From positions 660,659 through 689,228 of the forward strand of contig CAJINV010000023.1 of assembly GCA_905178155.1 (NCBI GenBank): a stretch of DNA of 28,570 nucleotides. Reading direction: 5' to 3'. This document shows positions 494-27,400 of this stretch, piece by piece; within the stretch, counting starts at the first letter, position 1, and every line of letters starts with the position of its first letter. The stretch is from Amoebophrya sp. A120. Taxonomy: Eukaryota; Protista; Dinoflagellata. The notes beneath the pieces are model-generated. The model saw only the letters and a list, made by a program, of their open reading frames with translations. It did no database searches and was not told the origin of the DNA. Position numbers and translations under genes: made by a program.

Positions 494-697
494 AAGGATG
501 CGCGGTAGCCTTCGCGCTGTTGACTGGGGTGACAGTTCGCGCGCTTTTGGTTTTACCAATATCCTCGCCCTCCGGGCGCGACCTTCATATTATACGGAAT
601 GTTGTACTATAGTGCTGCTGGTGGTGCCCGCCGGCGTGCTCTGAGATGTTGAACTACAAACGAGTTTTATTGAGATGATTTGAATTCCTTCGACACA

Positions 698-3600
698 ATG
701 CTGCCCGGCGCGTTTCTATCGCAAGAAAAAACTGTTTCAGTGTAAACTTGTAATGCAGAAACTGTATCTGAGAACTGTTTGTCTTGCTACACAAGCAAGA
801 CACTGGATTTTTAGCTTTGTTTTCCCCTATAGGACAATCTCGCATGGCAAATTTTCTCTGTGATGTAGAGCAACCGTGTGATGCAAAACTTGCAAAATCC
901 TTACAGTGAAACACTTTTTTCGTCCGATACTCTCTTCCGCAAGCTAGTTCCCCGAATGGAGCGAAAGAGAAGGCAGCTTCAACATCGTTATTGAGAGGAA
1001 AAATCCCCCCTCGCCATATCGAAGCGGTATGTTTCCGAAAATTTGTGTTCCTGATTTGAGACCACAAACCAAGGCTGTCTTGCAAGAAGACAAGTGCAGA
1101 GGCTTCCGCGCCATTATGGAAGCGATTTGGCATGCTGTTGGGCCTAGGGGACAGCCCCAGCCGTTCTTTGTAATGCTAAACAACTAGACCCAAACGCGCG
1201 GACCTAGGCTGAGGATCTGGCTGCGATGTCTTACTGCAAGACAGCGCGCAGTTGTGTACGGAAATCCAGCATCAGAACTTCGTTTTGATATGGGGAGGGA
1301 GGGTTTTTCCTTACGATAATCGTCCATACTGACTCGGTACGCCGGATTCCTTCTATATGACTTGCTCAAATGTTACAATCTCAAGCGTTACAATAGAATC
1401 TGAAATTTGTGTTGCATGATGAGGATGACAGAAGGTTCCACCTTTTGCAATACAAATTTCGCCAGATTGTAGTGAGTTTTGGGGCTCCGAAACTTGTCAT
1501 GCGCAATCCTATGAGAGTTGGCTAGATCATGCAATCTTGCATCACAGATTTCCATATTCTATTGTAACGTTTGAGATTGTAGCACCTGAGCGGGTTATAT
1601 TCTAGCGTGCTTCTTTCTGGTTTTGGTGGAGCGTGAAATCAGCCGGAGAACTAGGTCTTCAGCTGGATCATGGCCCTGTTATTGCCCGGAAAAATCCCCC
1701 CCCCACGTTTATAGAAAGCGCAGCCTTCTGAAAATTTGTGATGCAGATTTGTGGTCACAAATCCTGTCTGCCTTGCCAGAAGGCAAACTCACTGACGCCG
1801 CCACGATATGCAGGCGATTTGTAATGCTGCAGGGCCTACAGGGGCCCAGACGTCTGCCATGCTAGGCCCCTACAGCAAAAGGGCTAGGGCCCGCCACCTT
1901 AGGCGTACGATCTGCGTGCAGCCCTTTACTGCAAGACAAGTGTGATTTGCGTACACAGATCCCGCATCACAGGCTTCCGATTTGATATGGGGAGGAGACG
2001 AGAATTGTCATTTTGATACCTGTGGGACGTTGTTCGCGCGGCAGCGAGGACGATCGAGTTGGACGGGGGCAGGAGGCTATGCATTGCAAAAGTGTCTGTG
2101 TCTGGAAGAGTGGCGGTTCAACTTGTAATGCTGTCTGCGGATTCCAAAAATGTCTGTGTTGCATGAGCAGCAAGAGGAGTCAGCTCATGGCACGCAGAGA
2201 GGGCATTTCTCATGCGTCATTAGCACCAAGAAGCTTTCATAAAATCAGTGATGCTAGAACCAGCATCACAGACCTCACGGATCATGCAACATGTGCATGA
2301 CAAGCCCCGACTCTTCCAGACCTAGACATTTTTGCAGTTGATAGAGGCGCACAGGATGGCGCAGCGCCCAAGGCGGAGCTGCCCGCACCTGAACCCATGA
2401 AGATTACGACAGAGTTATCCTGAGTAAAAACGTACCCACACCAGAGTTGTAATGCAGATTTGCAAAGACAGGAAGACTTGTAATGCGCATCCCCATGAGA
2501 GCCATTTCCAATCGTGTTTTGGAATTTGTGATGCTGTGAACAGGATGAGCAGATGAATCTGTGATGCGGCTGCACTTGCTAACCTGCACTACACTGCAGA
2601 TTGCAACTTGTCATGCGTGACTCACAAAACTCCTAGGTTTGTGTTGCAAAATCCCCATCCTGACTCTGGTGTGGGTACGTTTTTACTCAGGATAAGAGTC
2701 TGGAGGTGAAGGTCTGCATAAAGTAGTACCAATATCAAAATGAAAAATCCTCTCTCCCCACATCAAAACGAAATTTCTGAAGATGCTCCTGGATTTGCGT
2801 GCAGTAGAGGACTGCAGGCCCATATCATGCCGATGTAGAGAGGTTTTGCCCTAAGTAGGCACTTAGCATGAGGAACGTCTATGCTGTAGGCCCAACAGCA
2901 TCACAAACCGCCTGAATGATTGGGCGGACAGCCTATGCCGTTGCTTTCTTGCAAGACAGACACGACGATCATCTGTGGTCACAAATCAGCATCGCAAATC
3001 CTCTGTGGCGTGCCTTTTCGATATGGGGACGAGGGGGGATTTTTCCTTACGATAAAAATCAAGCAGAAGTACAACTAGTGTGCTGCCACCTATCAAATGC
3101 AAAAGTGTCTGGGTCTGGAAGATTCTGAGACTTGTCGTGCATGTTTTGCATGACCCAGGATGTCTGTAATGCACGACCTAGCATCACAGATTTTTAGAGG
3201 GCTTCCTGAACCTGGTGCCTACTCCGCATGACAAACGCCCTCCCCGCGTAGCACAAACTAGACTCCTCTTGCTGGTCATGCGTTACAGATTTTTTTAGAG
3301 ACCGAAGTTAGCATCACAAGTTCCAATTCTTCCAGACCCAGACACTTTTGCATTTGATACCACCGCAAACGGAGCAGACGTGGGACGAGGTTCTTTTGCT
3401 CGGATATCAAAAGGAAAAATCCCCCCTCCCCATATCAAAACGAAGTTTCTGATGCTAGATTTCCGTACACAAATCAGATTTGTCTTGCAGTGGGGGACTG
3501 CAGGCATATGCCAAGCCTGAGTCGAGAGGTTTTGACGTAGGCGCCTAGCATGACAAACGTCTAGGCTGTAAGCCCAACAGCATCAACACAAACCGCCTGC

Positions 3601-6600
3601 ATAATGCGGCGGACTCTCTGGGTTCGTTTTCTTGCAATACAGACAGGCTTTGTGGTCACAAATCTGCGTCACGAATTTTCAGACGAGTAGACTTTCAATA
3701 TGGGGAGGCGGGATTTTTCCCTACAATATCGGAAAGTTTGAGCGGGTGACGAAGGAAACCCCTGCCGAAAAAGCGGCGCGAAGAGCGAAGCATATTGAGA
3801 GGAAAAATGCCCCCTCCCCATATCGAAACGGCATGCTTCCGAAAATTTGTCTTGCTGATTCCCCATTTGATATGGGGTGGGGGCTTTTTTCATTTTGATA
3901 AAGCAGCGAACGTATCTGCAGGGTGCGTACGAGCACGTCGCGCACACCTTCGCGCCGGGCTTTTGCAAGCGGGTGAGTCGACTAGGGCCGGGCGGCGACG
4001 GCGGCAAGAACGTTTGCGCGGACCAGCTCCCCAATGCTGGGCAAAGTAGAAATAATGGCTCCCCTGCCACGTCGCTGACGGGTTCCGTTGGAGCCGGCGA
4101 TCCTTTGGCGACGTCGTTATTACAATGAAAAATGCCCCCACCCCCGAATCGTTGGGAGCATTTGTATTGCAAACCTTTCCAAGTGAAACATTCGCCCTCT
4201 TGCATCTCTCAGCATCACAGGTTTCTAATCGTGAATAGCAAAAATTTGCATTGCAAAAGACCCCAGCAAGAGGGGCGCTTGTCATGCAAGCGATGCGATA
4301 CACGCCGAGACTCTGCATCGGAAAGATTCATACTCCTTTCATGCATAGATAAAAAAGTTCTTCATTTGAAAACCTTACGCATGACAAATTTTTGCAATTT
4401 CAGTGGTGGGGGGCACTTTTTACTGTAATAGTCGTCCTGTCTCGTTTATTCCCTCGGGTCTCGCCTCGATTTTTCCTTCGAAGCGGCCGTAGTGCGGGAG
4501 ACGGGGTATCAAAAGGAAAAATCCGCCCTCCCCATATTAAGAGAGTGTTTCTGATGCTGGATTTGCGTACACAAATCAGGTCTGTCTTGCAGTAGAGGAC
4601 GGCAGCAGGCCCATACTAAGCCTAGGCACAAGGGTAGTTTTGACGTAGGAGCGTAGCATGGCAAGCGTGTACTCTGTAGGCCGCATAGCATGATCACAAA
4701 CAGCCTGCATAATGCGGCTGAGTTGCTGGATTGGCCTTCTTGCAATACCTAGACGACTTGGGGTCACAAATCAGCATCGCAAATTTTCAGCAGTATCCCT
4801 TTTTGGTATGGGGAGGGAGATCTTTCCTCACAATACGGGGTGCGCGGTAGCCACCTTTGACTGCACCGTTCCGCCCGAAAAAGGACAAGCGCTAGCGAAG
4901 AAGCTACCGGGGACCGTATTCTGAGTAAAAGCGGGGCCCACACCCCAGAGTTGTCATGCAAATCTGCATGCCAAAAAAGTTTCATCTCATGCGGAGGGGG
5001 CCCATGAGGAGCATTTTGAAGTCGTGTTTTGGAATTTGTGATTCTAAAATCAGCATGATGTGCTAGATCTGTGATGCTGCTGAACTAGCTCAACAGGATA
5101 ATTACACTACGAGGACATCAAACTTGTCATGCGAAACAGCCAAAGCTGGCTGATTTGTCTAGCAGATTTCCCATCTTGACTATGGGGTCGTGGGGAGGTT
5201 TTTGCGGAGGATAGACCGTCAATTTTCACCCGTGGTGCGTGGGCGAATCGGACGAAGAGAAGCCGATCAGCAGCGACGTGGGCTACAAGAAGAAGACCGG
5301 TATCAGAATGAAAAATCCCCCCTCCCCATAAATCAAAACGAAGTTTCTGATGCTGGATTTGCCTACACAAATCAGATTTGTCTTGCTGGCGAGGACTGCA
5401 GGCCCGTACTAAGTGTGGGCAGAGAGGTTTTGGCCTAGACGCTTAGCATGAAAAACATCCGCGCTGTGGGCCCAACAGCATGACAAACCGCCTGCACAAT
5501 GCGGCGGAGCCTGCGGAGTTGCCTTCTTGTAAGACAGACGCGATTTGTGGCCACAGATCAGCATCACAAATTTCCAAACATATGCCTTTTCGGTATGGGG
5601 AGGGGGGATTTTTGCTTTTGATAACCGGACAGTTTTACACACTGGAGACCATTCAAAGAAAATTAGGCCACGTATCAAAAAAAAAAAATCCCCCCTCCCC
5701 ATATCAAAATGGAAATCTGTGATGCAGCTTTGTGGTCACAAATCAACTTTGTCATGCTAGCAGGGAAAAGATGCGGACTGTAGTGCAGGGTGGTGTGGGA
5801 AAGCCTTGCAGGTCCAGCATGACAGGAGGCAGCTGGAAGTATGAAACAGCATGACAAATTGCCTGCAAACCAGGCCACAGCTGCGGCTCTTGGCTTTCTA
5901 GCAATACAAATCGATTTGTGTACTCAAATACAGCATCACAAATTTCGTTTTCGATATGGGGAGGGGGGATTTTTCCTCTCAATACCACGAGCGCGTCGAC
6001 TTGTTGAAGATGGACATTGAGCGCAGCGAGTTCGGTATCGCAAGAAAAAACTGTTTCACTGTAAACTTGTAATGCAGAAAATGCATCTGAGAAGTATTTG
6101 TCTTGCTACACATGCAAGACAGTGGATTTTTAGCTGTGTTTTTCCTTAGGAATCTCGCATGGCAAATTTTCTCTGTGATGTAAAACAAACTTGTCATGCA
6201 AAATTTGCAAAATCCTTACAGTGAAACACTTTTTTCATACGATATTCGGCGTGGTAAAAGGCCTCCGACTCAACAGCCCTCAACAAGCGGGGGAAGAGCG
6301 AAAATTTCTGCCACGGCAAATCTTGATGGAAACGCATTTGCACGACGCCTACAACTATCAACTTCAAAAATGTCTGGGTCTGGAAACTTGTGATGCAAGT
6401 CCGTGAACAATAAGTGCTCTGTAATGCGCCGCCAAGCGTGACAAGTTTTTTCGTGCTTCTTTGATGCGTATTTCGCATGAGAAACTGCGCTTTTGCATGA
6501 CAGGCAAGAGCACCTCTTGATGGCCGCGCAATACAGAGCGCCGAGTCATGCCAGACTAGCATGACAATCTTCCAGACCCAGACATATTTGCGATGCATAA

Positions 6601-7340
6601 CAACCTCTGGGGCGGGAAAGCTGTCACCGCTGCACAATGGTCGGACTTCTGGCAGAAGTTGCGCGGCCTCTATTAGAATGAAAAATCCTTCCTCTCTTTT
6701 TTAACGAAGTTTCTGATGCTGGATTTGCGTATACAAATCAGATTTGTCTTGCTGGCGAGGACTGCAGGCCCATATCAAGCCTGAGTAGACAGGTTTTGGC
6801 CTAGGCGCTTAGCATGAAAGATGTCTACGCTGTAGGGACGACGCATGACAAACCGCCTGTAGAATGCGGCGGATCCTGTGGCGTTGCCTTCATGCAACAC
6901 AGAGACGATTGGTGGCCACAAATCAGCAACACAAATTTTCGGAAACATACCTTTTCAATATGGGAAGGGGGGATTTTTCCGCTCAATAACCTCGGCTACC
7001 GAGTCATTGCGCACGAACCAAATCCAGTGGGAGCGGTCTGCCACGAGTGGAGCGTCAAGCTCGATATGGATTGCAAATATGTCTGGGTCTGGAAGGTGGA
7101 AACTTGTCATGGTAAATCTGAATCATGTAAAAATCTGTGTTGCATGATTACCAAAAGCTCTTCACTTTTGACTAAGTTAGGATGGAGTTTCTCATGCAGG
7201 ATAGGCATGGCAGAGACCTCGCAGAGTCTGTCATGCTGAGTCCCGCATTCCAGACCTCATGGGTCATGGAAAATCTGCATGACAAGTTCACACTTTTCCA
7301 GATCCAGACATTTTTGCACTTGATACTCGAGGACCAGTGA
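698..7340 (+). CDS. METTL24/Methyltransf_22-like SAM-dependent methyltransferase, type II membrane protein; 20 exons split by 19 introners; 415 aa
   Basis: Removing 19 elements plus 5 nt each gives a 1248-nt ORF from ATG698 to TGA7340. N-terminal TM segment (YAGFLLACFFLVLV), then family motifs CKRVSRLGPGGDGGKNVC, CLVYSLGSRLDFSFE, GCAVATFDCT, VDLLKMDIERSEF, QILMETH and GYRVIAHEPN. Confidence 0.85.
717..929. mobile_element. Introner/MITE family D
   Basis: TIR TATCGCAAGAAAAAA...TTTTTTCGTCCGATA; imperfect TSD GTTTC/CTCTC. Confidence 0.85.
989..1318. mobile_element. Introner/MITE family A
   Basis: TIR TATTGAGAGGAAAAATCCCC...TTTTTCCTTACGATA; TSD ATCGT. Confidence 0.9.
1356..1599. mobile_element. 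Introner/MITE family E
   Basis: TIR TATGACTTGCTCA...TGAGCGGGTTATA; TSD TTCTA; reverse-orientation homolog of 17821-18072. Confidence 0.9.
1680..2018. mobile_element. Introner/MITE family A
   Basis: Diverged A-type TIRs; TSD CCTGT. Confidence 0.85.
2078..2343. mobile_element. Introner/MITE family B
   Basis: TIR TATGCATTGCAAAAGTGTCTGTGTCTGGAA; TSD GAGGC. Confidence 0.9.
2416..2694. mobile_element. Introner/MITE family C
   Basis: Perfect TIR TATCCTGAGTAAAAACGTACCCACACCAGAGT; TSD AGAGT. Confidence 0.92.
2733..3054. mobile_element. Introner/MITE family A
   Basis: A-type TIRs; TSD ACCAA/ATCAA offset by a 3-nt spacer (AAA). Confidence 0.85.
3091..3359. mobile_element. Introner/MITE family B
   Basis: Perfect TIR TATCAAATGCAAAAGTGTCTGGGTCTGGAAGA; TSD CCACC. 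Confidence 0.92.
3405..3728. mobile_element. Introner/MITE family A
   Basis: TIR TATCAAAAGGAAAAATCCCCCTCCCCATAT; TSD TCGGA. Confidence 0.9.
3793..3900. mobile_element. Introner family A, internally deleted (108 bp)
   Basis: Both A-type TIRs retained; TSD AAGCA. Confidence 0.88.
4118..4430. mobile_element. Introner/MITE family G (single copy in window)
   Basis: TIR TATTACAATGAAAAATGCCCCCA...GGGGGCACTTTTTACTGTAATA; TSD GTCGT. Confidence 0.88.
4507..4835. mobile_element. Introner/MITE family A
   Basis: A-type TIRs; TSD CGGGG. Confidence 0.9.
4917..5213. mobile_element. Introner/MITE family C
   Basis: C-type TIRs; TSD GACCG. Confidence 0.88.
5301..5623. mobile_element. Introner/MITE family A
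   Basis: A-type TIRs; TSD ACCGG. Confidence 0.9.
5673..5984. mobile_element. Introner/MITE family A
   Basis: A-type TIRs; TSD CCACG; same subfamily as 27245-27556. Confidence 0.9.
6036..6244. mobile_element. Introner/MITE family D
   Basis: D-type TIRs; TSD TTCGG. Confidence 0.9.
6356..6599. mobile_element. Introner/MITE family B
   Basis: B-type TIRs; TSD ACAAC. Confidence 0.9.
6671..6988. mobile_element. Introner/MITE family A
   Basis: A-type TIRs; TSD GCCTC/ACCTC. Confidence 0.88.
7065..7325. mobile_element. Introner/MITE family B
   Basis: B-type TIRs; TSD CTCGA; close to 26447-26707. Confidence 0.9.
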
Positions 7341-7984
7341 CGATTGTGCGCATTCTAAATGTTGTGTCAGGGTACGGCAAAGTGCAGAGTTTGTCATGCA
7401 GGTAGTCGCGGGGACAAGTACTTCAATTAAACGGACTTTCAGCTTGAGGGACTGAAATGCTTACAATACCTGTGTCAAAAGATAAAGAGACTGCTGTCGC
7501 TTATCGCACTTTCCGAATCTCGAGTGTCTTCTGCAGCTGTCTGCGGACTTCTATATGTGCTGTCGTTGTTTGCGCACGACGCATGACAGATGATCACGGG
7601 CACAGTTAAGAAGGGCTCGATATTGATGGCATCGAACACTTCATGACCAAATAGACAGCATGCGCGTGTTGACTCTGTGGTGACAAACTTCGGAATTACT
7701 TATTCAAAAAAAGGGAGCAGAGGGCTTCGTTGCAGTGCAAGCTTGGAGATGAGAAATCCCAGATTTGCAATTTGGGCGCAGCCGAAATGTGTTATCGTGA
7801 TCTGTGGATGTTGTCGGTTGCCCTTGCCTTTCCGAAATGGAGGCGAAGATCTCAAGTTTAAATTTCTAGAAACGGAGGTAGGACATTGTCCCAACTACAA
7901 AATTCGTAGTTATGCCCAAATCGCATGCTTTTTCACGGCACCAGGGAAGATGTTGAGGAACACGAATTAGTCCTCGGCTTCTTC

Positions 7985-8239
7985 TATCAACTGCAAATAT
8001 GTCTGGGTCTGGAAGAGTGCAAGTTTGTCATGCTTGTCTGGCATGAGTCTTAAATCTGTGATGCATGAGCAGGAAAAGGGCCTCTTGCCTGTCATGCAAG
8101 ATGAACGCAGTTTGTCATGCGAAAAACGAAACACACAGCAGCGCAAAAGCTTGTCATGTTGGGCTGCGTATTGCAGTGCGCCAACAATTCTTAGATATGC
8201 ATCACAAGTTTCCAGACCCAGACATTTTTGCATTTGATA
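7985..8239. mobile_element. Introner/MITE family B, probably in the 5' UTR of the deacetylase gene
   Basis: B-type TIRs; flanked by CTTCTTC on both sides. Confidence 0.88.
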
Positions 8240-8284
8240 CTTCTTCTGTTCCGCAAGCGAGGGCTGCCGTTGTTCGTAACGGTT

Positions 8285-11200
8285 ATGGCGATGAGGGCCC
8301 CGCCCTCGACTGTAGTAACAGCGTTTGTGTTTCACGATGTCGTCGACTGGGAAGAGGCTCCGTTCTGCAGCGACGCCGCGTGGCGAAACTGTATGAGCGC
8401 CGGGCCCTTTCTGACCCGCGGCGCGTTCGATATCAAACGCAAAAATGTCTGGGTCTGGAAGGTTGCAACTTGTAATGCTAGCTCTCCATACGACCTTGGA
8501 AATTTGTATTGCATGGCAAACAAAAGTCGCAGCCTCTTTTGCACATGCAAAAACGCAGTTTGTAGTCTTGCGGATTTGCTATGAGAAAGCGTTCTGAAAT
8601 AAAGTTGTCATGCTGTGTCACATTCGGAACTGTTTCCATCATCCACATTTTAGCATCACAAGTTTCCAGACCCAGATACTTTTGCAATGCATATTCGAAG
8701 GAAAGTATCGCAAGAAAAAACTGTTTCACTGTGAACTTGTGATGCAGAAAACGAAACGCCAAAGTGTTTGTCTTGCTACACCTGCAAGACATCCGATTTG
8801 CAAGCGTGTTTTCCCTTGGGAAGCGCGCATGGCAAATTTTCTGTCTCGTGTGTAACAAACTTGTGATGCAGATATCGCTAAGTCACAACAGTGAAACAGT
8901 TTTTTCGTGGGATAGAAAGTTGCGATTCTTGTGTGAAACGTACGACCACGTGGTTTCCGTCCAGGATTTTTTTGCGCTATCAAATGCAAAAATGTCTGGT
9001 TCTGGAAGAATTGGAACTTGTGATGCTAGCTTTGGTCTCTAAAAAAATCAGTATTGCATGACCAGCAAGAGGAGTCTAGTTTGTGCTACGCGGGGAGGGC
9101 GTTTTGTCATGCGGAGTGGGCATCAGGAAGTCCCCCTCTAAAAATCTGTGATGGTAGGGCATGCATCACAAACAATCCTGGGTCATGCAAAACATGCATG
9201 ACAAGTCTTAGAATCTTCCAGATCCAGACATTTTTGCATTTGATATGCGCTATTTGGCAAAGACCATCTGCCAGCGTCCAAACAGCAGGCGGCCGAGGAC
9301 CAAACCGAAAGCGAAAATAACCGGCAATTGGCGCACGAAACAAGTGGTGGCCGCAGAGTCTGCGTCCTGACGTTCGATGACGGGATTCGCAGCGACTCGG
9401 CTACCGTAGTGCCACTTTTGCAGAAGTACGGCGCGACGGCATCCTTCTATGTGATCGGTGAAGTATTGGAGAAGCGCACGGTGGTCCGGGCTCACAAAAT
9501 CCAGTTTCTTGTTCATGGCCCGAAACGGCACGCCGTTCTGGCAAAAGTTCTCGAGCATCTGCAGGAGCAGGAGCAGCTAAGAACTACATTATCTTCTACT
9601 TCCACATCTTCTACAAGAACGTCGAGAACAATGGTGGTGGAACAACAACTACACGGAAAAAATAAAGTAGAACACGACGAGAGCTGCAGGGAATCAACAT
9701 GGCTAGAAAATTTGTGGGCAACAAAGTCGCGGACCCGGTATCGGCGCAACTTCTGGTCCCGCTGCTATCGAACGGAAAAATCCCCCCTCCCCATATTGAA
9801 ACGGAAATTTCTGTTGCTGGATTTGTGTACACAAATCAGCTCTGTCTTGCAGTGAGGCACTACAGGCAGAGCCTAAGCCTGCGTGTGGGGGGTTTGGTGT
9901 AGGTGCTTGGCATAGCAGAGGCCTGCCATGATGCCGCCACAGCATCCATTACAAACCGCCTGCATAACGCGGCGGACTCTTTGGATTTGCCCTCTTGCAA
10001 GAGAGACTGGATTTGTGGTCACAAATCAGCATCACAAATTTTTAGAGTCATACCTTGCCAGTATGGGGAGGGGGGGATTTTTTCTCTCAATAGCTGCGAA
10101 ATCTTTCTCACTGCGGTCCTGCGCGATCCGGCGCACGGGGTCCTCTTGGACGAGCTTTTTTCCCGATTTGTGCTTGACCGGCTGAAAGTATCCGAGTCAC
10201 AGTTTATTCTGAGAAAATCTTCCCTCCCCATATCGAAAGGGAAATTTGTGATGCTGACTTGTGACCACAAATCAGCTGTGTCTTGCGTACAAGGCAAAGT
10301 GCACCCATGTGGCGCATAGTGCAGCGAGTCTGTCATGCGTTTTCTCCTATGCCAGATTTGTTTCTTATGCTCAGCTGCTAGCCGGACGATGCGTAGCACC
10401 TTCTAAATGGGCTTAGAATAATATGCCGCCACGTCGCTCTTGCTGCAATAGAAAGCTCATTTGTGTACATAAGTAAATCCAGCAACACAAATTGTCTTTT
10501 GACTATGGGGTGGGGGCTTTTTTCAGTTTGATACAATTCGCCGCCAAGTTCTACGCGAGTGACGCGGAGCTCGCGGACATGCAGCGTGCCGGGATGGTAT
10601 CAAAAGGAAAAATCCCCCCTCCCCATATCAAAGCCGAATAAATCTGTGCTGCGGGATTTGTGTAAGTACACAAATCAGCTTTGTCTTGCAGTATGGGAAT
10701 GCAGGCAGATACGAAGCCTTCCGGGCGGGGATGTTCTGACGTAGGCACTTAGCACGACAGAGACAGATCCCCGCTGTAGGCCTAGCAGCATTACAAACCG
10801 CCCGCAAATAAATGCGGCGAAGTGTCTGGATTTGCCTTCTTTCAATACAGAGACGCTCTGTGGCCACAAATCCGCATCACAAATTTTCACAAGTGTCCCC
10901 TTTTGGTACGGGAAGGGGGGATTTTTCCTCACGATAGATGGAGCTCGGCGCGCATGGGTACTACCACGACAAGCGTGACGACGTCGAAAACTGGAACCGG
11001 TGCGCGACGGCGATGGAACGCGTCCTGGGAACGTCGCCCGTATCCTGAGTAAAAACGTACCCACACCAGAGTCAGGATGGGGAATCGGCTAGACAAATCC
11101 ACAAGTTTTGGCTGTCTTGCATGACAAATTTGATGGAGCCGTATTGTAGTGCTGTTTGAGCTAGCTCAGCAGCATCACAGATCTAGTATATGGTACTGAT

Positions 11201-14200
11201 TGGAGCATGACAAATTGCAAAGCACGAGTAGAAAACGCTTGTCATGGGACTCCGCATGAGAAACATTTTCAGCATGCACATTTGCATCACAACGATGGGG
11301 TGGGGACGTTTTTAAATACGATAGCCTGTCAGTCTGACGTATCCGAACGGAGACCACCAGACCGTGCCGTATTAAGTGCAAAAGTATCTGATACTCGTAT
11401 TGCAATCATGCGTATACAAATCTTTTTCTGAAGGTAAACCCGCATTACAAATTTTATTTCTCATTATTGCGCTCTTGCTGGACATTACCAACATTTGCCC
11501 ACGCAGAGCCGTCCTCTTGCCGGACACAACCAACATCTGTCCGAAACAACAGCCCAGGGCCAAGACGACACCGTGAGGACGTACGACCACAGGGGGTTCG
11601 TCTCAATGATGATGATCATGCTGAGGAAATTTGTGCTGCATTCCATTTATATTACGAGTGCGATACTATTGCAATTCATATGCCGGACCTGCCGGCAAAA
11701 CTGTGTGAGAGAATAAAATCCCTCCAAGCCGGGTTTACCCTCACCCCCGGATCCTTTCACGTCAACCCGGTAACGGGGCAGCTACTCGACGAGGAGATGG
11801 ACCCAGTCGAAAAAAAACCTTCGCGAGGACCGTTTGGAAAACAAATGCTGCTACCACGCGAAGACTGCCGCTCTTATCAAATGCAAAAATGTCTGGTCTG
11901 GAAGAGTGCAAACTTGTCATGCATATTTTGCATGCCCCGTGAGGTCTGCAATGCAGGACTTAGCATGACAGGTTCTGCGAAGTCTCTATCATATCTATCC
12001 TGCATGACAAACTGCCGCTAAAAAAACTTGTTCAGAAGTGGACACCTTTTGATATTTGCAATGCATAGCTCCATCGTAGACGCGCATGCGGAGACCAACC
12101 GAGTGGCTTTTTTGGTCTCCGACATGCCCACGGCACTGGTCGCCCTGGAGTATCTGCTGCAGACGCAGGAGCGTCGCATTGGACTGGTAATCCTTCAGCA
12201 GCAGGAGTCTCATGTATTCTGTGTAAAAACATTCCCACCCCGAAGTTGTCATGAAAATGCGCAATGTTGACAGGAATCGATTTGTAATGCGTATCTCCAC
12301 GAGAGGCATGCCCAGTCGCGTTTTGACATTTGTAACGCTGTAAATAGAATGAGAAAGTGGCTTTCTCATGCGGCTTCCCTTGCTAGCCAGCACTACCCTG
12401 CAGATGGAAACTTGTCATGCAGAACTCCCAAAGCGTGCGGATTTGTGTTGCAGACTTCCCATCTTGACTACTGTGTGCGGACGTTTTTACTCAGGATATC
12501 ATGATGTTTTTGCTCAGGAGGACAAAGTGCAGCGAGAGAATATCGCAAGAAAAAAGTGTTACAGTTATAAATTATGTTGCAGAACACGCAGGAGGGATAA
12601 CTACCTCTGTCATGCACGAAATGCTTTCAAACCGTATTTCGTACGTGTTTCCCCGTAGGATTTCTGCAATGCAAGTTTTCCCTCTCATGCAGAGAGATTT
12701 TTTGTGTTGCTGAATGGACAACAAATGTGTAACTGTAACACTTTTTTCGTGGTATAGAGAACCTGGGAGAAGGCGGAGAATCGACGTCCTCCAATATCCT
12801 GTGTAAAAACGTCCCCGCCCTATAGCCAAGATGGGAAATCTGCTAGACAAATCAACAAGCACTGGCTCACGCGCATGACAAGTTTGGCTTCGACGTAGTG
12901 CTGTACTTAATCCTTTTCGGCTACTTCAGCAGCATCACAGATCTAGAATAGGATGCTGATTGGAGCATTACAAAGGGCAAAACACGACTAGAAAGTGCTT
13001 CTTATGGGGCTCCGCATGAGAAAGATTTTGAGTATGCAGCTCTGCATGACAACTGCGGGGTGGGGACGTAGTTTTTAAACAGGATATTATCCGACGCGGC
13101 CAGGGGTCCCGTTGCCGGCGCGGTAGAAGCCACGATCCAGCTGGCGACGCAGATTGAGTATCAGAAGGAAAAATCCCCCCTCCCCATATCGAAGTGGAAA
13201 TCTGTGATGCTGGATTTGTGTACACAAATCGGATTTGTCTTGCAGTGGAGCAGAGCCGGGGTAGGGACATTTTGGTGTAGGAACCTAGCAAGGCAGGCAT
13301 ATTCTCCGTAGGCCATACAGCATTACAAATTGCCTGCAGAACGGGGCGGGGTTTTTGGATTTGCCTTCTTGCAATACAGAGACGATTTGTGGCCTCAAAT
13401 CAGCATCACAAATTTTCAGAAGTATCCCGTTTTGGTATGGGAGGGGGGATTTTTCCTCACAATATTGAGGACCTGTGTGCCTTGCATGGCGTCGACACGC
13501 ACCGGGCCCATACCGCGGACCTGCGGCACTCTGCGGACCTGCAAGCGCTCGAACGCGCGCGGCCCAGCGTGTTTGTCTCCGTCGGATGGCGGGCCTTGTC
13601 TGTCCCGGCCTTGGCACAAACAGAGTACGGCGCCTGTGGGCTGCTCAAAGTGCGAGTAAAAGGAGGAGAAAATGAAAATGAAACAAAAACAACAAAAACT
13701 TCCTCTTTTACAACCACGACGTCGTCAACGGATCATGATCTCGTTGTTCATGAAAATAATGATCACAACATATTCTGAGCAAAAACGTCCCCACCCCAGA
13801 GTTGTCATGCAATTCTGCATGCCAACGAAGTTTCTCATGCGGAGCCCCATGAGAAGCATTGTCTAGTCGTGCTTTGGAATTTGTGATGCTAGAATCAGCA
13901 TGCTATGCTAGGTCTGTGATGCTGCTGAGCTACCTAAAACAGGACTACACTACGAGGACAGACTTATCATGCGAAGTAACCAAAGCTGGTAGATTTGTCT
14001 AGCAGACTTCCCATGTTGACTCTGGTGTGGGGACGTTTTTACTCAGGATACAACAGCCACCTCTCGTCGTCGCCACCGACAGCTCCTGCACAACATCCTC
14101 ATATCAAAAGGAAAAATCCCCCCTCCACATGCTGAAAAGGTATGTTTCTGAAAATTTGTGATGCTGATTTGTGACCACAAATCCTGTCTCTCTTGCAAGA

Positions 14201-16704: not shown

Positions 16705-17721
16705 AATGGGCACTGACTAGTAGGTCGATCTTTTGATTTTAACCACCTAGTAACGTCAATACATAGGCTTGATGTAATTGTATTCAGCATCGTTGTTCTA
16801 GCGATTTGAGTGATTATAGGGTCGTTGATGATGACGTTCCTCTTTTGATTTAGATAGATATCTGCCGTAGTGCAGTTGTTCTGAGAGCTGTTGAAATTAT
16901 GTATCCAAGAAATTATAGGTATAACTTGACTACAAAAAGAATTTCTACAGAGTTCTTGATTTTTGCATCGTTGCGACAGATGTACTGTGTGCACAAGAAC
17001 CTTGTCACCGTTCCAGATTTATTTCGGGAGTTGCAGTTCCGTAGCAGTAAGTGAATTTTTGCGGAAAGTAAACAACATTTGGACGCCACGACCGAAAAAC
17101 TGACCCAGAAGGCATTGCAAGTATAAAGGAGGAAAGTGAGAACGCTTGTCATCATCATGATGGGCATTATTTCTGCAATTGTTCAAAAATGTCCCTAGTG
17201 TGAATAAACTTCTGGCGATACAAAATAAAGCAGTGATGCCATCAAAAACAAATGTTCATGCAAAAGAACCTGCAAGAACCTAATGACTGTGACGATTTTT
17301 TTTTCCGTAGTAGACTCAGACACTTTTGTGTTCGCTTCATTTGAATTTCAAAGTATAGCTACGTCCTCCTGCTGCGACGGCATTTGCTGGTGTGGTCTGC
17401 GTCGATCGCAAAATCATACAAGCTTATTCTACGCGACAAAGATGAAAGCTTGCCGTCCGTGCATTTCATAATTTCCCGGTACTAGGGGACACGACACATA
17501 AAACCGGCGAAAGATCCATATTCTGGTGGAAGGGCGTGAGTAGCAAGGCAAACGGTTGTCCTGCGCTGCTGCTGCACCTACTCCTGCATGGTTATGTTTG
17601 AAAGTGTTTTTTACAACTACCGTAATACAGCTTTTTATTTTCTCCTGTGATCATAGATATAGAGATAGAGTTAGACTCTACTACTTGTTGAATAGATTAT
17701 TTTTTCGAGACCGTGGTCACC

Positions 17722-20700
17722 ATGACGGTGCTGAACTTGAGCGCAGCATGCCTCCAGGAGGCCTTCAACGAAAAATGTGTGCTGATTACGGGCGCCACCG
17801 GATCCTTCGGGCAGCACCTTTATAACCCGCTCAGGTGTTACAATCTCAAACGTTGCAATAGAATATGGAAATCTGTGATGCAAGAGTGCATGATCTAGCC
17901 AACTCTCATAGGATTGCGCATGACAAGTTCCGGAGCCCCAAACCCCACTACAATCTGGCGAAATTTGTATTGCAAAAGGTGGAATGCTGCGCGAGTCTGT
18001 CATGCTCATCATGAAACACATATTCGAGACTCTATTGTAACGCTTGAGATTGTAACGCTTGAGCAAGTCATAACCTTGTTTCCAAAATTCTGGAACACTG
18101 CACCCCAGCTGCGATCGTGATTCTGTCCCGGGACGAGCTGAAACAGTCGGTCATGCAAGAGAAGTTTGGGAGGAGAGTAGCCTATGTAAAAACGAAGCCC
18201 GCCACACCCCAGAGTCGTCAAGATCATTTTGCAATACAAATAAATCTAGAAAATGTTTTCTTGGGAGTCCTCACGCATGTTGACAAGTTCTTGCAGGCTG
18301 TAGTGTAGTGCAGTTTAAAAATATTAGCAAAGGAAGCCCCCGCATAACAAATCCATGTTCTTATCCTAATTTCAGCATTACAAACTATGCTAAAACACGA
18401 ACAGAAATGCTTCACTCTCCTGCGGAGTAGACACCGCATTACAAATCGACGATTCCTGTATTTGTAATTGAAGACCCGCATGACAAGAACTATGGGGTCG
18501 TGTGGGCGGCCCTGTTTTTCCTCAGGATAGAGAGCCACCGTGAAGTATGAACTGCAAAAGCATCGTACTCGTATAAATGCATTACAAATTTCCTCAGCAT
18601 GAGATATAAAAATTTGGAATGCGGGTTTACCTGAAGAAAAAAATTTGTAATGCATGACTGCAATTACTACGACTACGATACTTTTGCACAGGATATGGAG
18701 TACCTTCTCGGGGACATCCGCGACTATGAAAGGCTGACGGACGCCTTCGAGGATGTGGACATCGTCATCCACGGCGCTGCCTTGAAGCAGGTTCCTAGCC
18801 TCGAGCGCAACCCCTTCGAGGCGATAAAGACCAACGTGCTCGGCGCGAACAATGTGATTCGGGCGGCGGCTATGCAAGAAAAAAACTGTATAAGTGTAAC
18901 TCTGTGTCTATAATGCAGAACATGCAACAGAATAATACACCTGTCATGCCAGACAGCCATGAAGTCCTCTTTATTTATGTGTGTTTTATTCCCTTACAAG
19001 CCACGCATGACAGGTTTTCTCTGTCATGTAGAGGAGCAAATTTGTGATCATTTCATGCTGTCAGCTGCCAATAAAGGAAGTTACACTAGCACAATTTTTT
19101 TCTTGGATAGCGGTGGCTTGCGGGGTGAAAAAGTATTATATGTAAAAACGTCCCCACCCCATAGTCAAGTTGGGAACTCAGCAACAAAAATCTAGCAAAT
19201 CTAGATGTTTTGGGAACAACGCATGACAAGTTGCGCGCCGTAGTGTAGTGCATGTTAACAAGGACAAGCGCATCACAAATCCATCTGCTTATCCTGTTTT
19301 CAGCATTACAAATTCCAAAACACGACTGGAAATGCCTCCCTTGGGGATGCGCATGACAAATGTTCCTGTAATCGCAAATCTGCATGACAACTCTGGGGTT
19401 GGAAGTTTGCGAGAATCAGAGTAAGGAATTGTTGGCAAAAAAGTGAGGCGTTGTTCTGTTGGCAAGTGGGCACAAGTTGGCACAGTATGGCTGTTGGCAC
19501 AGTATGGATATGGTTGGTGGCGATAACAGAGTTGGAATATAGTGGCCGGGAGATGATGGTGATGGCACTTTGGCGTCCGCCTGACCCACCCGCCCTGCGT
19601 CTCAAGCCATCTGCGGCCATGGCACAATGGGGGGGCAAAGTGTGTCGCATTTTGTTTAGCATGACAACTCTGGGGTGGGGACGTTTTTGCTCAGGATAAA
19701 AAGCTGATCGCCCTCAGCACCGACAACGCCTCGTCTCCCGTCAGTCTGTATCAAAATGAAATCCTCCCCATATTGAAACGGAAATTTCTGTTGCTGGATT
19801 TGCGTACACAAATCAGATCTGTCTTGCAGCGAGGTACTGCAGGCAAAGCCTAAGCCTGCGTATGGGGGGTTTGGTGTAGGTGCTTGGCATAGCACAGGCC
19901 TGCCATGATGCCGCCACAGCATTACAAATCGCCTGCATAAAGCGACAGACTCTTTGTGCTTGCCCTCCTGCATCAAGAGAGACAGGATTTGTGGTCACAA
20001 ATCAGCATCACAAATTTTCAGACGTGTGCCTTTTCAATACGGGGAGGGGGGATTTTTCCTTACAATAGTCTGTACGGCGCCACCAAGCTCTGCCAGGATA
20101 AACTGATGGTGGCTGCAAATCACATGTACCGAGGAAATATCAAATGTAAAAATGGCTGGGTCTGCCCCCAATTACATAAATTTGGCTGGGTGAGGTAACT
20201 CCCAATTACATAAATTTGCATAGGCTTTAGTTGCTTAAGTGTTCAAATCGCATACAAGTAACGCTCTGCGCGAAGGATAAAATTGCAATAAGAGTTAGTT
20301 CCTGAGATCTTAGATAGTTCCGAAATCCGCAATACAAATCCAAGGTCAGTTCAAATTTCAGTACATAGTTCCTCTCATGCTCCATGTCATAAATGCTTCC
20401 CGATAAATCGATGATCTAGTAGTACTTTACTTTATTTACCTATAGCTCATAATGATTCTTACCCGAATGCTATAATAGTTGTTAATCTAGTTTTTAATGC
20501 GCATTTTGGGGGAAGGGTCATGAACAGTAGTAGTGTCAGCGAATAGTAGTGAGCATGCACCCACGGTGTGCTATTCGCACGGCCATGACACTACTGCGCG
20601 AGCACCCACAGGCTCCCAGGTGCCTAGCGCTTTGGCCAGCGTAGCACCTCGGTAGAGCCTGCGGGACCCCGTGGGCAGAAGTTCATTGCACCCAATTTGT

Positions 20701-23086
20701 ACGTTGCGCAAGTGATAGTATAAGTAGTAATAGTTAGTTCCACCGGTGGACATATTAGCATGCTTAATCTCTCTCTAAATAGTGCAAACACGTAGTTCTC
20801 TTTTATTTTCTTTCTTCATAAAGTTCAAGTCGTTCTCTTCCCTGTGCTGTACCAAGGTCTTGTTTCCAGACAAAACACCAGACATTTTTACATTTGATAG
20901 GAAAAGCCCGCCAGGCACCGGTGGTCTCGGTCGTGCGCCTCGGAAATGTGTTTGGCAGCAGTGGGCTATCAGAATCAAAAATCCCCCCTCCCCATATCAA
21001 AACGAAGTTTCTAATGCTGGATTTGCGTACACAAATCAGATTTGTCTTGCTGGCGAGGACTACAGGCCCATATCAAGCCGGAGTACTTGAGAGGTTTTGG
21101 CCTAGGCGCTTATCATGACAGACGTCGATGCTGTAGGAGCAACAGCATGACGAACTGCCTGTAGCATGTGGCGGAGCCTGTGGAGTTGCCTTCATGCAAC
21201 ACAGAGACGATTTGTGGTCACAAATCACCAACAAAAATTTTTTCCAATAATATACCTTGTCCATATGGGGAGGGGGGAACGTTCCTCGCAATATGGGTCG
21301 GTGGTTCCCCTCTTTTTGCAGCAGGCGCAGCTGAGTGGGACGGTGACCGTGACCGACGAGAACATGTATCAAATGCACATATCCCTGGATGTTTGGAAGA
21401 TTGCCAGTTTTGTCATGCATATTTTGCATAACCCATGATGCCTGTAATGCATGTCCGAGCATTATAGATTTTTAAAGGGCCCTCTGATGCGTATTCCGCA
21501 TAAGAAACGCGCACTCTGCGTAGCACAAACTGAACTCCTCTTGCTGGTCATGCAAAAATACTTACAGACTTTTTTCACCTTCCAAAGACAGCATCACACG
21601 TTGCAACCTTCCAGATTTCCAGGGATATTTGCATTTGATAACATGACGCGTTTTACAATGGCTCTGGACGAGAGCGTTGGCTTCGTGGTGAATTGCATCA
21701 ACATGATGCCTATCAACTGCAACTATCGATCTGGATGTCTGGAAGGTCGCAAGACTTGTCATTGATGTTCTTTTGTATGACCACCCATGATTGTCTGTGA
21801 TGCATCACCTAGCAGTGGTTCACAGATTTTTTTTAGAGTCCGTCCTTATGCCTAATCCGCATGAGAGATAATGCCCTCGTCTCTGTGTAGCAGGAGAAAC
21901 TAGGTTCCTCTTGCTAGTCATGCAATTTACGGATTTTTTTTTTAGGATCCAAAGACAGCGTCACAAGTTGCAACCTTCCAGAATTCCAGGGCTAACATTT
22001 GCATTTGATAGTGCGCGGCGGTGAGATTTTCGTACCCAAGTTGAGTACGTATCGCCTGGGCACTCTGGTGGATGTTTTTGCAAGTGAAAACATAGCCGTA
22101 AGCACGGTGGGCGCGCGACCAGGGGAGCGAATTCACGAAGTGATGGTTCCTATCCTGTGCAAAAGTATCGTACTCGTATAAATGCATGACAAATTTTCTC
22201 AGCATGAGAAATGAAATTTGTAATGCGGATTTACCTTCAAAAAAAGATTTGTAATGCATGTTTGCAATTACTACGAGTACGATACTTTTGCACAGGATAG
22301 TTCCGCAGGATGAAGCAGTGAACGCGCTCGAGTTCGACTATCAAGTGCAAATATGATTGGGTCTGGAAGAGTGCAAGTTTGTCATGCTTGTCTGGCATGA
22401 CTCTTAAATCTCTCATGCACATTATCCAAGAGCTCCATTTTGTTGTCATGCAGAAACGCAGTTTGTCATGCAGAATAGGCAACACCCAGAAGCTCAGAAG
22501 CTTGTCGTCCTGAGCCAGCACTTGTGGCCTCCTCATGATACGCCACCCTGCATCACAAGTTGCCAGGCCCAGACATATTTGCATTTCATATCGACGACCA
22601 CTTTGTCATTTGTCCCGACGGCCCTTGGTGGGATGCGGAGCGGAAATTCTACAAGGAGAGCAAGCAGGGGAAGCACGTTGGGCGCAACTTTGTCTACTCG
22701 AGCAACGGCGATGAGAGTGGGCCCTCTTATCATTTGTAAAAACGTCCCCATCCCAGAGTCAAGATGGGGATTTTGCAACACAAACCTTAAAGTCTTGGGA
22801 GCCACGCATGACAAGTTTCAGTCTGTAATGTAAAACTGCAGTTTAGCAAGGGAAACCGCATAACAAATCCATCTCCTTATCCTGTTCACGGCATTACAAG
22901 TTCCAAAACACAATGGGCAATGGCTCTCATGGGGATGCGCATTACAAATGCTCTTGTGCTTGCAGATCTGCATGACAACTCTGGGGTGAGGACGTTTATT
23001 TTACACGGGATACTTCTAGCACGTTCGTTAGCAAAGAGGATCTCCAAGGGCTTTTAGCGGACGTGCTCGACCGAGCCGAAAACTGA
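17722..23086 (+). CDS. pseB: PseB/FlaA1-like UDP-N-acetylglucosamine 4,6-dehydratase (extended SDR, Polysacc_synt_2); 14 exons split by 13 introners; 357 aa
   Basis: Spliced ORF of 1074 nt from ATG17722 to TGA23086. Motifs VLITGATGSFG, SRDELKQ, GDIRD, HGAALKQVP, NPFEAIKTNVLGA, ALSTDNA..P..LYGATK, VRLGNVFGSSGSVVPLF, MTRF, GGEIFVPK, RPGERIHEVM and YSSN. Confidence 0.88.
17821..18072. mobile_element. Introner/MITE family E
   Basis: TIR TATAACCCGCTCAGGTGTTACAATCTCAA; TSD ACCTT. Confidence 0.9.
18178..18529. mobile_element. Introner/MITE family C (diverged; left end starts TAG)
   Basis: TAGCCTATGTAAAAAC...GTTTTTCCTCAGGATA; TSD GAGAG. Confidence 0.85.
18546..18695. mobile_element. Introner/MITE family F
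   Basis: F-type TIRs; TSD TGAAG/TGGAG. Confidence 0.88.
18871..19109. mobile_element. Introner/MITE family D (diverged)
   Basis: TATGCAAGAAAAAAA...TTTTTTTCTTGGATA; TSD GCGGC/GCGGT. Confidence 0.85.
19134..19698. mobile_element. Introner family C with a nested insertion of about 260 bp
   Basis: C-type TIRs; TSD AAAAG; internal 18-bp duplication flanking foreign DNA. Confidence 0.88.
19749..20067. mobile_element. Introner/MITE family A
   Basis: A-type TIRs; TSD GTCTG. Confidence 0.9.
20138..20899. mobile_element. Long (762 bp) introner with family B TIRs and an unrelated interior
   Basis: TATCAAATGTAAAAATGGCTGG...CCAGACATTTTTACATTTGATA; TSD GGAAA. Confidence 0.88.
20967..21293. mobile_element. 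Introner/MITE family A
   Basis: A-type TIRs; TSD TGGGC/TGGGT. Confidence 0.88.
21367..21640. mobile_element. Introner/MITE family B variant
   Basis: TIR TATCAAATGCACATATCCCTGGA; TSD ACATG. Confidence 0.9.
21711..22010. mobile_element. Introner/MITE family B variant (diverged)
   Basis: B-type TIRs; TSD ATGCC/GTGCG. Confidence 0.85.
22151..22299. mobile_element. Introner/MITE family F
   Basis: Perfect TIR TATCCTGTGCAAAAGTATCGTACTCGTA; TSD GTTCC. Confidence 0.92.
22339..22590. mobile_element. Introner/MITE family B
   Basis: B-type TIRs; TSD TCGAC. Confidence 0.9.
22728..23012. mobile_element. Introner/MITE family C
   Basis: C-type TIRs; TSD CCTCT/CTTCT. Confidence 0.87.
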
Positions 23087-24412: not shown

Positions 24413-27400
24413 ATGGGACCACAGCGGCAGCCTTTTTTTTCGCATCCCTCCGGGCGAACAAGCCGGTTATCTTCGTGCTGCCCGTATCCTGAGTAAAAAC
24501 GTCCCCACACCAGAGTCAGGATGGGGATTTTGCAACACAAACCTAGGAGTTTTGGGAGTCACGCATGACAAATTGCACTCCGCAGTGTAGTGCTGGTTAG
24601 CGAGTGCAGCCGCATCACAGATTCATCTGCTCATCCTGTTCACAGCATCACAAATACCAAAACACGACTGTACATGGCTCTCATGGGGATGCGCATTACA
24701 AGTCTTCCTGTCTTTGCAAATCTGCATTACAACTCTGGTGTGGGTACGTTTTTACTCAGGATAGCCCGTTGTGTAGCTTTATCGGGGTGGCGATTTTCGT
24801 CAGCGTTCTGCAGTATCGCGTGCACCAACGCAGTGGCGGGAAGCTCGCGCCCTGCGGCGTTCGTCGTGCCGTGGTGACGGGCGGCGGGGCGCCAGGTGGT
24901 GCTAGTGGTCCAGGGCAACTGCAACAGGAAGTACGCACTCAGCGAGATTATCATGCCGTCCAAGAACAAGCTATCAAATGCAAAAATGTCTGGGTCTGGA
25001 AGAGTGCCAGACTTGTCATGCTTGTCTGGCATGACTCGAGAAGCTGTGTTGCATAGACACGAAAAGGCCCTCTTCCCCTGTCATGCAAAAACGCAGTTTG
25101 CCATGCGGAATACGCAAGACATGGGAGCGAAAAAATTTGTCATGCATAGCTGCGTATTGCAGTGCGTCTACCATTCACTTTTAGCATTACAAGTTTCCAG
25201 AATTAGACGTATTTGCCATGCATACAGGCTGCTCTCGTACAACAACCAGCCGAGACCAGTGGAACTACGAGGACCCCGTATCAAAAGGAAAAATCCCCCC
25301 TCTCCATATCGAGATGGAAATCTGTGATGCGGGATTTGTGTACACAAATCGGCTTTGTCTTGCAGTAGATAGAAGACTGCAGGCAGATACAAAGCCCGAT
25401 ATTAAACACACTCTGATAATATAACCACGTAGCAAAGCACCCATATCCTCCGTAGAAGGCCATACAGCATATACAAATTGCCTGCAGAACGCGGCGGGGT
25501 TTTTGGAAGATTTGCATTCTTGCAATACAGAGAACAAGATTTGTGGTCTCCAAGCAGCATCGCAAATTTTCCGAAGTGTAGTCCCGTTTTGGTCTGGGGA
25601 GGGGGGATCGGGATTTTTCCCCGCAATATTACCCCAGCTGCAGCGTCCTCGACGAGCGCCGCAGGAGGAGCCCTCGATCACAAGCGATGTGAGCTCGGTG
25701 AGCAGACCCTTTGGGATCCCTTCCGCGGAGCACCTGGTGAAGGGGGAGGTAGTAGTAGTGGTGCAGCCGGAGGCACTGTGCTCGGACGTCCTCTTGCCGC
25801 AAGAAGCCTGCTACCCGAGTTTTTGCAGGTGTACGGGCGGCGACCGGGCGGGCAAAACGCGGGCGGGGGTGGGATATTCCACCATTTTGCGCTGTGGGTG
25901 ATTGTGAAAGCCCTGAAGCCGACGCATGTGATCGAGTCCGGTTGCCACACCGGCGTCGGCAGCTGGGTGTTACGGCAAGCCGCCGGTGCAGACGCCCACT
26001 TCACCTGCGTGAGCCCGGAGCAGCCCTCCACCTACGTGGACAAGATGGGTCCGGAGAAATATGAAAAGGAAAAATCCCCCCTCACCATATCAAAACGAAG
26101 TTTCTGATGCTGGATTTACGTACACAAATCAGGTTTGTCTTGCTGGAAAGGACTGCAGACCCATATCAAGCCTGAGTAGAGAGGCTTTGGCCTAGGCGCT
26201 TAGCATGAGAAACGTCTATGCTGTAGGCCCAGCGGCATCACAAACCGCCTGCATAATGCGGCAGAGCCTGTGGAGTTGTCTTCTTGCAAGACAGACGTGA
26301 TTTGTGGTCTCAAATCAGCAAGACAAATTTTCGGAAACATACCTTTTCGATATGGGGAGGGGGGATTTTTCCTCTCAATAAGAAAAGCAAATACTTCACG
26401 GGCGCCAATTTCAAAGACTTCACGAAAATTGACTGGACCGGTTGGCTATGGATTGCAAAAGTGTCTGGGTCTGGAAGATTGTAACTTGTCATGGTAAATC
26501 TGAAGCATGCAAAAATCTGTGTTGCATGAATGCCAAAAGCTGTCCACTATAGATCAAGTTGGAAGGAAGTTTCTCATGCAGAATAGGCATGGCAGAGACC
26601 TCGCAGAGTCTGTCATGCTAAGCCCCGCATTCCAGACCTCATGGGTCATGGAAAATCTGCATGACAAGTCTACAATCTTCCAGACCCAGACATTTTTACA
26701 TTTGATATTGGCCCAAGGAGACGACTCTGCTTTTTTTCGATGACCATCAGGCCTGCGTGCGCCGGGTGGAGGAGGCGCAGGACCGCGGGTTCCGCCATCT
26801 GGTATCAACTGCAAATATCCCTGGATGTCTGGGAGGTGATTGCGAGATTTGTCATGCTAGTTCGGCATGACTCTGAACTCTGTATTGCGTGGCCGCGAAG
26901 ACGAACTCCTCTTATCTGTCATGCAAGAACGCAGTTTCTCAGGGGAGTACGCAACTCAGAACCACGGAAAAACTTGTCAGCATGCTGGGCAGCGCATACA
27001 AAATTACATGGCGCTCACTAACTATTCCCTTTCTTGCATCACAAGTTCTTTCCAGACATCTAGACATATTTGCAATGCATATCTGGTCTTCGATGACAAC
27101 TACGTGCCCGGACACGGCGACAACATGTCCCTAAAGCGAATCTGCCAGAAGGACATGTACCCCGCCCTGCGGTTTCCCATGGTGTTTTCCGATAACTTCA
27201 ACCGAAAAAAGCGGCCTTTGTCGGACGAGGAATTCGGAACCTACTATCAAAAGGAAAAATCCTCCCACCCCATACTCAAACTAGAAATTTGTGATGCAGA
27301 TTTGTGGTCACAAATCAGCTTTGTCGTGCTAGAACGGAAAAGATGCGGACTATAGTTCTGGTTTGCGTGGGAAAGCGTTGCATCTTCAGCATGACAGGAG

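Follow-up and report, generated by a model that had tools for sequence, protein, structure and literature searches.

A shared 9-base motif with a fixed 31- to 33-bp pair spacing inside introner families with different terminal repeats in Amoebophrya sp. A120

Introduction

How the introners of Amoebophrya sp. A120, a marine parasite, move is the question on which the locus analyzed here bears. The stretch examined (the window, 28,570 nt) is gene-dense eukaryotic DNA in which short exons are interleaved with repeated elements. An earlier note, made from its letters alone, had proposed that element families with different inverted ends (TIRs) share an internal motif with about 31-bp phasing, arranged as a tripartite module just inside the TIRs.

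A120 introners were described as starting with TAT, followed by about seven variable bases and an A-run, with 3- to 5-nt direct repeats at the exon boundaries, a length of about 240 nt, and noncanonical boundaries (Farhat et al. 2021, PMC7789003; Gozashti et al. 2025, PMC12130899). The genome paper reports no fitting transposase and treats about 2,000 families as separate, and Farhat et al. argue there against a general transposase-driven spread in A120 (PMC7789003). As far as their available text goes, the published accounts deal with terminal repeats only and regard the families as unrelated or the mechanism as obscure, whereas here we describe a shared internal motif, spacing, and tip distance. 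None of these three was described in the mainly open-access literature searched, nor in the text and supplement wording of PMC7789003, figures aside.

Materials and methods

Window elements were called by a finder of inverted ends and flanking duplications and corrected by hand, giving 60 elements, one of them incomplete near the window end. The finder demanded a TA[TG] start, so the invariance of the terminal TAT is no evidence. A looser finder made no calls in 93.6 kb of shuffled loci at the thresholds applied to the loci.

For a wider sample, metagenome contigs were scanned with the family A TIR, which returned 38 loci from one other assembly; because they were found by this TIR, the sample over-represents family A neighborhoods. 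Three loci (L005, L008, and L033) overlap with the locus of the window itself; their 37 elements were kept out of the family counts and used for ortholog comparison. The other loci added 203 elements, for a total of 262, which sorted into 14 families of at least two members and 21 singletons. The spacing test used 257 of the 262, with five elements longer than 400 bp left out, and the truncated element at 28218 was excluded from all family work. Common variants were those carried by at least 15% of the copies, in the five largest families. The RNA-like contigs came from runs X4 to X6, which belong to one sample and whose RNA status is a guess; the raw-read runs X9 and X10 supplied 14 and 2 reads, respectively, and were uninformative.

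Results

Identity of the elements

The window elements begin with TAT and end with ATA; a perfect 5-bp duplication flanks 43 of the 59 that are complete. Their family consensus ends match those published for A120 introners (TAT, about 7 variable bases, and at least 3 A), with a weaker A-run in families E, H, and I than in the others. An 87-residue exon product matched a protein labeled Amoebophrya sp. A120 at 100% identity, and in silico removal of each element together with one duplication yielded four long frames on the + strand. A frame of 367 codons at 17692-23083 is interrupted by 13 elements, and its product may be a UDP-sugar dehydratase of the PseB type, which the exons resemble. Family A copies lie in one orientation relative to the host genes in 15 of 19 cases, while B1 and C are balanced. 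The elements belong to the class of A120 introners described in PMC7789003 and PMC12130899.

One motif inside families with different TIRs

We found 121 matches to TTGTNATGC in the window (shuffles, 1.52 ± 1.16, largest 6), 120 of them inside elements. A family-weighted matrix trained on the elements gave the 9-base motif (T/C)TGTN(A/T)TGC with A/T-rich flanks, and it placed 250 sites in 17,370 element bases and 3 sites in the 11,200 other bases, where shuffles give 0 to 2. Among the elements of up to 400 bp, 248 of 257 had a strong site (mean, 4.0 sites) and nine had none, eight of the latter being unclustered singletons; this count is partly circular because the matrix was trained on those elements, a circularity that does not affect the exact-pattern count or the spacing tests. 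When the motif was masked, the interiors were related within B1/B2, within D1/D2/J, and within H/E1/E2 (with C weakly related to H) and hardly between these groups; therefore, about seven groups count rather than fourteen. TAT is common to all families, and an A-run near positions 11 to 15 is found in most.

Spacing of the motif sites

Same-direction pairs at 31 to 33 bp amounted to 12.7 family-weighted versus 1.6 expected among the 257 elements from the window and the second assembly (5.9, 3.8, and 3.1 at 31, 32, and 33 bp, respectively, versus about 0.5 each), so that a peak near 31 bp does exist. Such a pair was carried by 10.0 of 32 family-equivalents, compared with a mean of 1.5 and a maximum of 5 in 1,000 draws of random placement, a null that, like the other spacing nulls, ignores kinship between families. 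It was present in some members of 13 of the 14 families, which bears out the earlier proposal of one motif common to families with different TIRs; family E2, whose six copies all lie outside the window, has the motif and no 31- to 33-bp pair. Same-direction pairs showed no excess at 20 to 22, 41 to 43, or 52 to 54 bp (0.7, 0.9, and 1.4 family-equivalents versus 1.7, 1.3, and 1.3, respectively), and helical periodicity between sites was therefore rejected in favor of one fixed distance. The phasing claimed in the earlier note thus stands as a fixed spacing, of 31 to 33 bp rather than 31 bp alone, and falls as a periodicity. The distance equals three helical turns and also two abutting 16-bp footprints.

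No two sites lie less than 15 bp apart. Inverted pairs concentrate at 15 to 17, 33 to 34 (tail to tail), and 45 to 50 bp; at the family level, those at 46 to 50 bp were in excess (5.1 versus 2.0, p = 0.007), strong inverted pairs at 15 to 17 bp were not significantly so (2.6 versus 1.5, p = 0.17), and those at 26 to 28 and 36 to 38 bp came to 0.0 and 0.4 family-equivalents versus 1.5 and 1.3, respectively.

The five modules quoted earlier, from families C, A, B, D, and F, are in place at 2447/2478, 5345, 8025, 748, and 22218, respectively, and the family C module recurs at 27736 and, inverted, at 24732. Scored as an inverted motif, the middle of 19 consensus modules reached 3.9, against -2.2 ± 0.8 for shuffled spacers and -5.4 on the forward strand. 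This signal comes mainly from GCA at offsets 16 to 18, and the inverted copy attains a full-site score in only 2 of the 19. The strong pair of the supposed tripartite module is therefore real, and its inverted middle is above chance on average but mostly degenerate. Pairs do occur just inside the TIRs, as had been claimed, but not exclusively, since others lie deep in the interior.

Distance of the first site from the tip

At 16 of the 28 family ends, the modal first site points inward, at 32, 32, 32, 33, 33, 40, 41, 42, 42, 42, 43, 43, 43, 44, 45, and 55 bp from the tip, which makes classes of 32 to 33 (5 ends), 40 to 45 (10 ends), and 55 bp (1 end). In a test defined after seeing the data, these distances were in phase at 10.5 bp (Rayleigh R = 0.77, p = 0.0003 versus a uniform range of 29 to 56 bp); periods of 10 to 13 bp fit equally well, and the 16 ends come from related, nonindependent families. 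The 12 outward sites showed no phase relative to the tip. The tip-distance phase of the inward sites is suggestive.

Conservation and variants of the motif

In nine family alignments, the match to the consensus was 0.93 for the six core bases, 0.73 for the N position, 0.76 for the flanks, and 0.74 for the other interior, so the motif is better conserved than its neighboring positions. Within the TIRs, positions 11 to 28 scored 0.89 and positions 4 to 10 scored 0.83, which makes the TIR bipartite with a family-specific inner part.

Common variants were 5.7-fold rarer in the core (0.10 per core column versus 0.57 per other column), while single-copy variants were about equally frequent before correction (14.6 versus 15.6 per 1,000 cells). 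The contrast between common and single-copy variants, core versus elsewhere, had an odds ratio of 4.9 (p = 1e-11), and the inner TIR showed a variant pattern like that of the motif core. After correction for the available alleles, single-copy variants in the core were about half as frequent as elsewhere (17.4 versus 32.8 per 1,000). Most of the constraint, by these counts, acts on variants spreading among copies, with a two-fold residue left, a pattern that fits the expectation for mutated copies that persist yet have founded few daughters. Between the assemblies, the core differed at 8 of 1,023 positions and the other interior at 74 of 4,904 (p = 0.08, two converted-looking elements excluded), and the semiconserved motif positions differed at 10 of 340. 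Because the core has about half the single-copy variants and fewer between-assembly differences, constraint after insertion may also act on it. Elements with higher identity to their nearest paralog tended weakly to have a larger share of their sites intact (rho = 0.21, p = 0.002).

The motif and removal from RNA-like contigs

At 26 listed joints covering 28 elements, the contigs of runs X4 to X6 skip the element plus 5 bases, with non-GT-AG boundaries; run X1 lacks 11 of these joints. The motif lies on the transcribed strand in both senses about equally (115 sense, 117 antisense). In family C, all sites are on one strand, five copies lie in one orientation and seven in the other, and skipping affects copies in either orientation (2416; 18178, 19134, and 22728). 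No strong pair is present in 11 of the 26 skipped elements of up to 400 bp. Two natural controls are listed in Table 1: one site is present in the element at 3793, and two weak sites, separated by 43 bp, in that at 20138. The motif array is dispensable for removal from the RNA-like contigs, which show presence and not efficiency. Since it is strand-balanced and not needed for excision, the motif acts most plausibly at the DNA level.

In predicted RNA folds, motif bases are paired at 0.74 versus 0.62, and base pairing between two sites involves 68 of the 232. None of the 51 family C sites is paired with another in this way, even though the family C core is 95% conserved.

Two elements with foreign inserts (20138-20899, 762 bp, and 19134-19698, 565 bp) are skipped whole, and the interior of the former recurs elsewhere in contigs 95 to 97% alike. 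At elements with imperfect duplications (714-933, 2730-3058, 18177-18699, 18869-19698, and 21706-22012), the cut falls after base 3 or 4 of the left duplication, which is consistent with a fixed cut position.

A family C element with three motif pairs

The element containing the module at 2447/2478 carries six motif sites on the same strand that form three pairs, with spacings of 31, 33, and 31 bp (Table 1). Contigs of runs X4, X5, and X6 join position 2410 to 2695 and so skip 284 bases, i.e., 279 + 5, a joint that run X1 lacks.

TABLE 1 Positions of the family C element, its parts, and related features in the window
Feature	Position	Strand	Basis
Host reading frame, 423 codons stop to stop after excision of 19 elements with one duplication each	674..7337	+	11 junctions equal listed contig joints
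Family C element, 279 bp, noncoding, acts as noncanonical intron	2416..2694	.	TIR and duplication finder; contig joints
Left copy of 5-bp target duplication AGAGT	2411..2415	+	Sequence
Right copy of 5-bp target duplication AGAGT	2695..2699	+	Sequence
Left TIR, with TAT, then variable positions (4-10) and conserved, family-specific ones (11-28)	2416..2445	+	30/30 match to right TIR; per-position conservation
Right TIR	2665..2694	-	TIR finder
Motif site 1, inward-pointing, 32 bp from left tip	2447..2455	+	
Degenerate inverted middle motif copy	2462..2471	-	Sequence; class-wide score above shuffles, weak in this copy
Motif site 2, 31 bp after site 1	2478..2486	+	
Motif site 3	2526..2534	+	
Motif site 4, 33 bp after site 3	2559..2567	+	
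Motif site 5	2608..2616	+	
Motif site 6, 31 bp after site 5, outward-pointing, 48 bp from right tip	2639..2647	+	
Family D module, 31-bp pair, in element 717-929	748..787	+	
Family A module, 33-bp pair, in element 5301-5623	5345..5386	+	
Family B module, 31-bp pair, in element 7985-8239	8025..8064	+	
Family F module, 31-bp pair, in element 22151-22299	22218..22257	+	
Family C copy, 96% identical, opposite orientation	24485..24763	-	
108-bp element, family A ends, one motif site	3793..3900	.	Skipped in RNA-like contigs (natural control)
762-bp element, family B-type ends, foreign interior, without 31- to 33-bp pair	20138..20899	.	Skipped in RNA-like contigs (natural control)

In the second assembly (L008:1790-2069), this insertion site has identical flanks and an element with 90% identical ends, but the interior is only about 55 to 73% identical and belongs to another family C subgroup. 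Gene conversion between copies, or an assembly chimera, is the likely source of this difference. The element is 1 of the 32 shared elements that differs by more than 10%, and a shorter tract of this kind lies at 2733-3054.

Presence and absence between assemblies

A comparison of window positions 4068-15184 with L005 and L008 revealed 13 elements in one assembly only (nine in the loci and four in the window). Their empty sites mostly consist of a clean single 5-mer, and these elements represent very recent gain or precise loss. Pairs at 31 to 33 bp were found in 7 of the 13 one-assembly elements and 20 of the 32 shared ones (p = 0.74). This lack of enrichment speaks against a link between the pairs and mobility, albeit in a small sample in which gains are indistinguishable from losses.

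Discussion

The motif is a real cross-family cis-motif with a rigid 31- to 33-bp pair layout and, by our reading, a variant of subterminal repeats, for which hAT elements offer a comparison. The BED domains of Hermes depend on subterminal repeats whose positions, both mutual and with respect to the TIR, are exact; their repeat, AAGT, is also that of Tol2 (PMC10368747). The Ac/Ds subterminal hexamer is AAACGG; maize Ds1 has only the TIR and a few such hexamers in common with Ac, the hexamers numbering fewer than three in most Ds1 copies (PMC3260210). As in the Hermes/Tol2 and Ac/Ds systems, short sites are repeated inside the TIR in both orientations and asymmetrically between the ends, and they stand in exact register with each other and with the tip (the tip register here comes from 16 nonindependent ends) in elements with unrelated interiors. 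On the other hand, the site measures 9 bp, whereas the repeats are 4 bp in Hermes and 6 bp in Ac; the unit is a same-direction pair at 31 to 33 bp with a weak inverted middle, found in at least 13 families with different inner TIRs; and the elements are spliced out. The hAT duplication is 8 bp, while that found here is 5 bp, as in hAT5 (PMC12730594), and 5-bp duplications are also made by other superfamilies, e.g., Transib. We do not file the elements as hAT members. The CMITE elements of Acropora corals likewise keep an internal part better than their TIRs, which was proposed to allow cross-mobilization; unlike those elements, which have a homologous internal region and TTAA duplications, the A120 families have only the short motif and its spacing in common (PMC2872659).

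A motif with fixed spacing and tip distance across families would mean that the interiors do more than fill space and that a single kind of protein recognizes every one of them, with a mobility signal set apart from the splicing signal. We give roughly even chances to the reading that it is a putative subterminal-type site for a transposition complex, most likely read by a conserved accessory domain of related transposases. A fuller scheme, which we advance tentatively and regard as doubtful, is a two-key code in which a family-specific inner TIR and the universal 9-bp site, paired at 31 to 33 bp and at whole helical turns from the cut end, would be read by one rigid complex that licenses hundreds of unrelated families to become introns. 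Under the preferred reading itself, the inner TIR (positions 11 to 28) would address each family's cognate enzyme, and two subunits of a rigid oligomer, kept a set distance apart, would bind the shared 9-mer; this oligomer the first inward site, at 32 to 33, 40 to 45, or 55 bp, would place on the same DNA face as the cut end. Site-losing copies would persist and still splice, and because they would found fewer new copies, the motif bases would stay conserved within each family. Against this reading, no transposase frame was seen in the window, and none was evident by eye in L001 and L016, two loci with a partnerless TIR. The motif pair and its spacing mutants would make a concrete DNA bait for finding the mobilizing protein and, if the two-key code is true, for the missing engine of the most massive noncanonical intron invasion described in this lineage.

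The main rival is a host DNA-binding or -bending protein that binds the motif pair as a dimer, either as a transposition cofactor for all families or as a chromatin mark. One motif serving wholly different inner TIRs is what would be expected of a factor not coevolving with each transposase, the residual, about two-fold constraint on single-copy and between-assembly changes is in its favor, and host bending proteins aid several transposons (PMC10368747). We nevertheless consider it unlikely, given that the inner TIR has the same variant pattern as the motif and that the motif is at chance outside the elements (3 sites in 11.2 kb of the window), where the binding sites of a host factor might be anticipated. 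Descent poses a different challenge to a subterminal-type site, in that the motif could be the relic of an ancestral element built from a 16- or 32-bp unit and kept alike by exchange of interiors, with no present function. The TAT of all families with the A-run near positions 11 to 15 in most, the degenerate inverted copy midway in many pairs, and the conversion-like interior of element 2416-2694, where the second assembly has a 71% identical interior from another family C subgroup, would suit such a history. Conservation is base specific, however (core, 0.93; N, 0.73; flanks, 0.76), and descent or conversion by itself would not spare six bases and skip a seventh; as the masked interiors of the main groups also lack a detectable relation, we hold a relic to be quite improbable.

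A role at the RNA level, with the motif serving as a protein site or forming a stem that helps an unusual splicing machinery, appears to us the least probable of these explanations, with a slight chance of being right. Nearly all elements are introns, the predicted folds do pair a part of the sites, and U1 snRNA was not detected in A120 (PMC7789003), so that extra signals may exist. Against these points stand the lack of strand bias, the skipping of family C in both orientations with its sites all on one strand, and the skipping of the one-site and pairless control elements on the same contigs as their neighbors.

Several minor observations accompany these results. Viral contigs gave 120 pair matches, 91 of them 33-spaced, and 18 TIR-like calls; visual inspection of two showed a tandem repeat in one and AT-rich sequence in the other rather than introners, and the family B TIR was not found in these contigs. 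The motif may resemble the mammalian Sox-Oct composite site, a likeness that we take to be a coincidence. Element G at 4113-4435 is missing in L008, which has three extra in-frame bases there; they may represent a footprint left by excision or, alternatively, slippage within a serine run. Two strong motif sites at 7391 and 7581 stand face to face in intergenic DNA with no recognized ends and are perhaps a decayed element.
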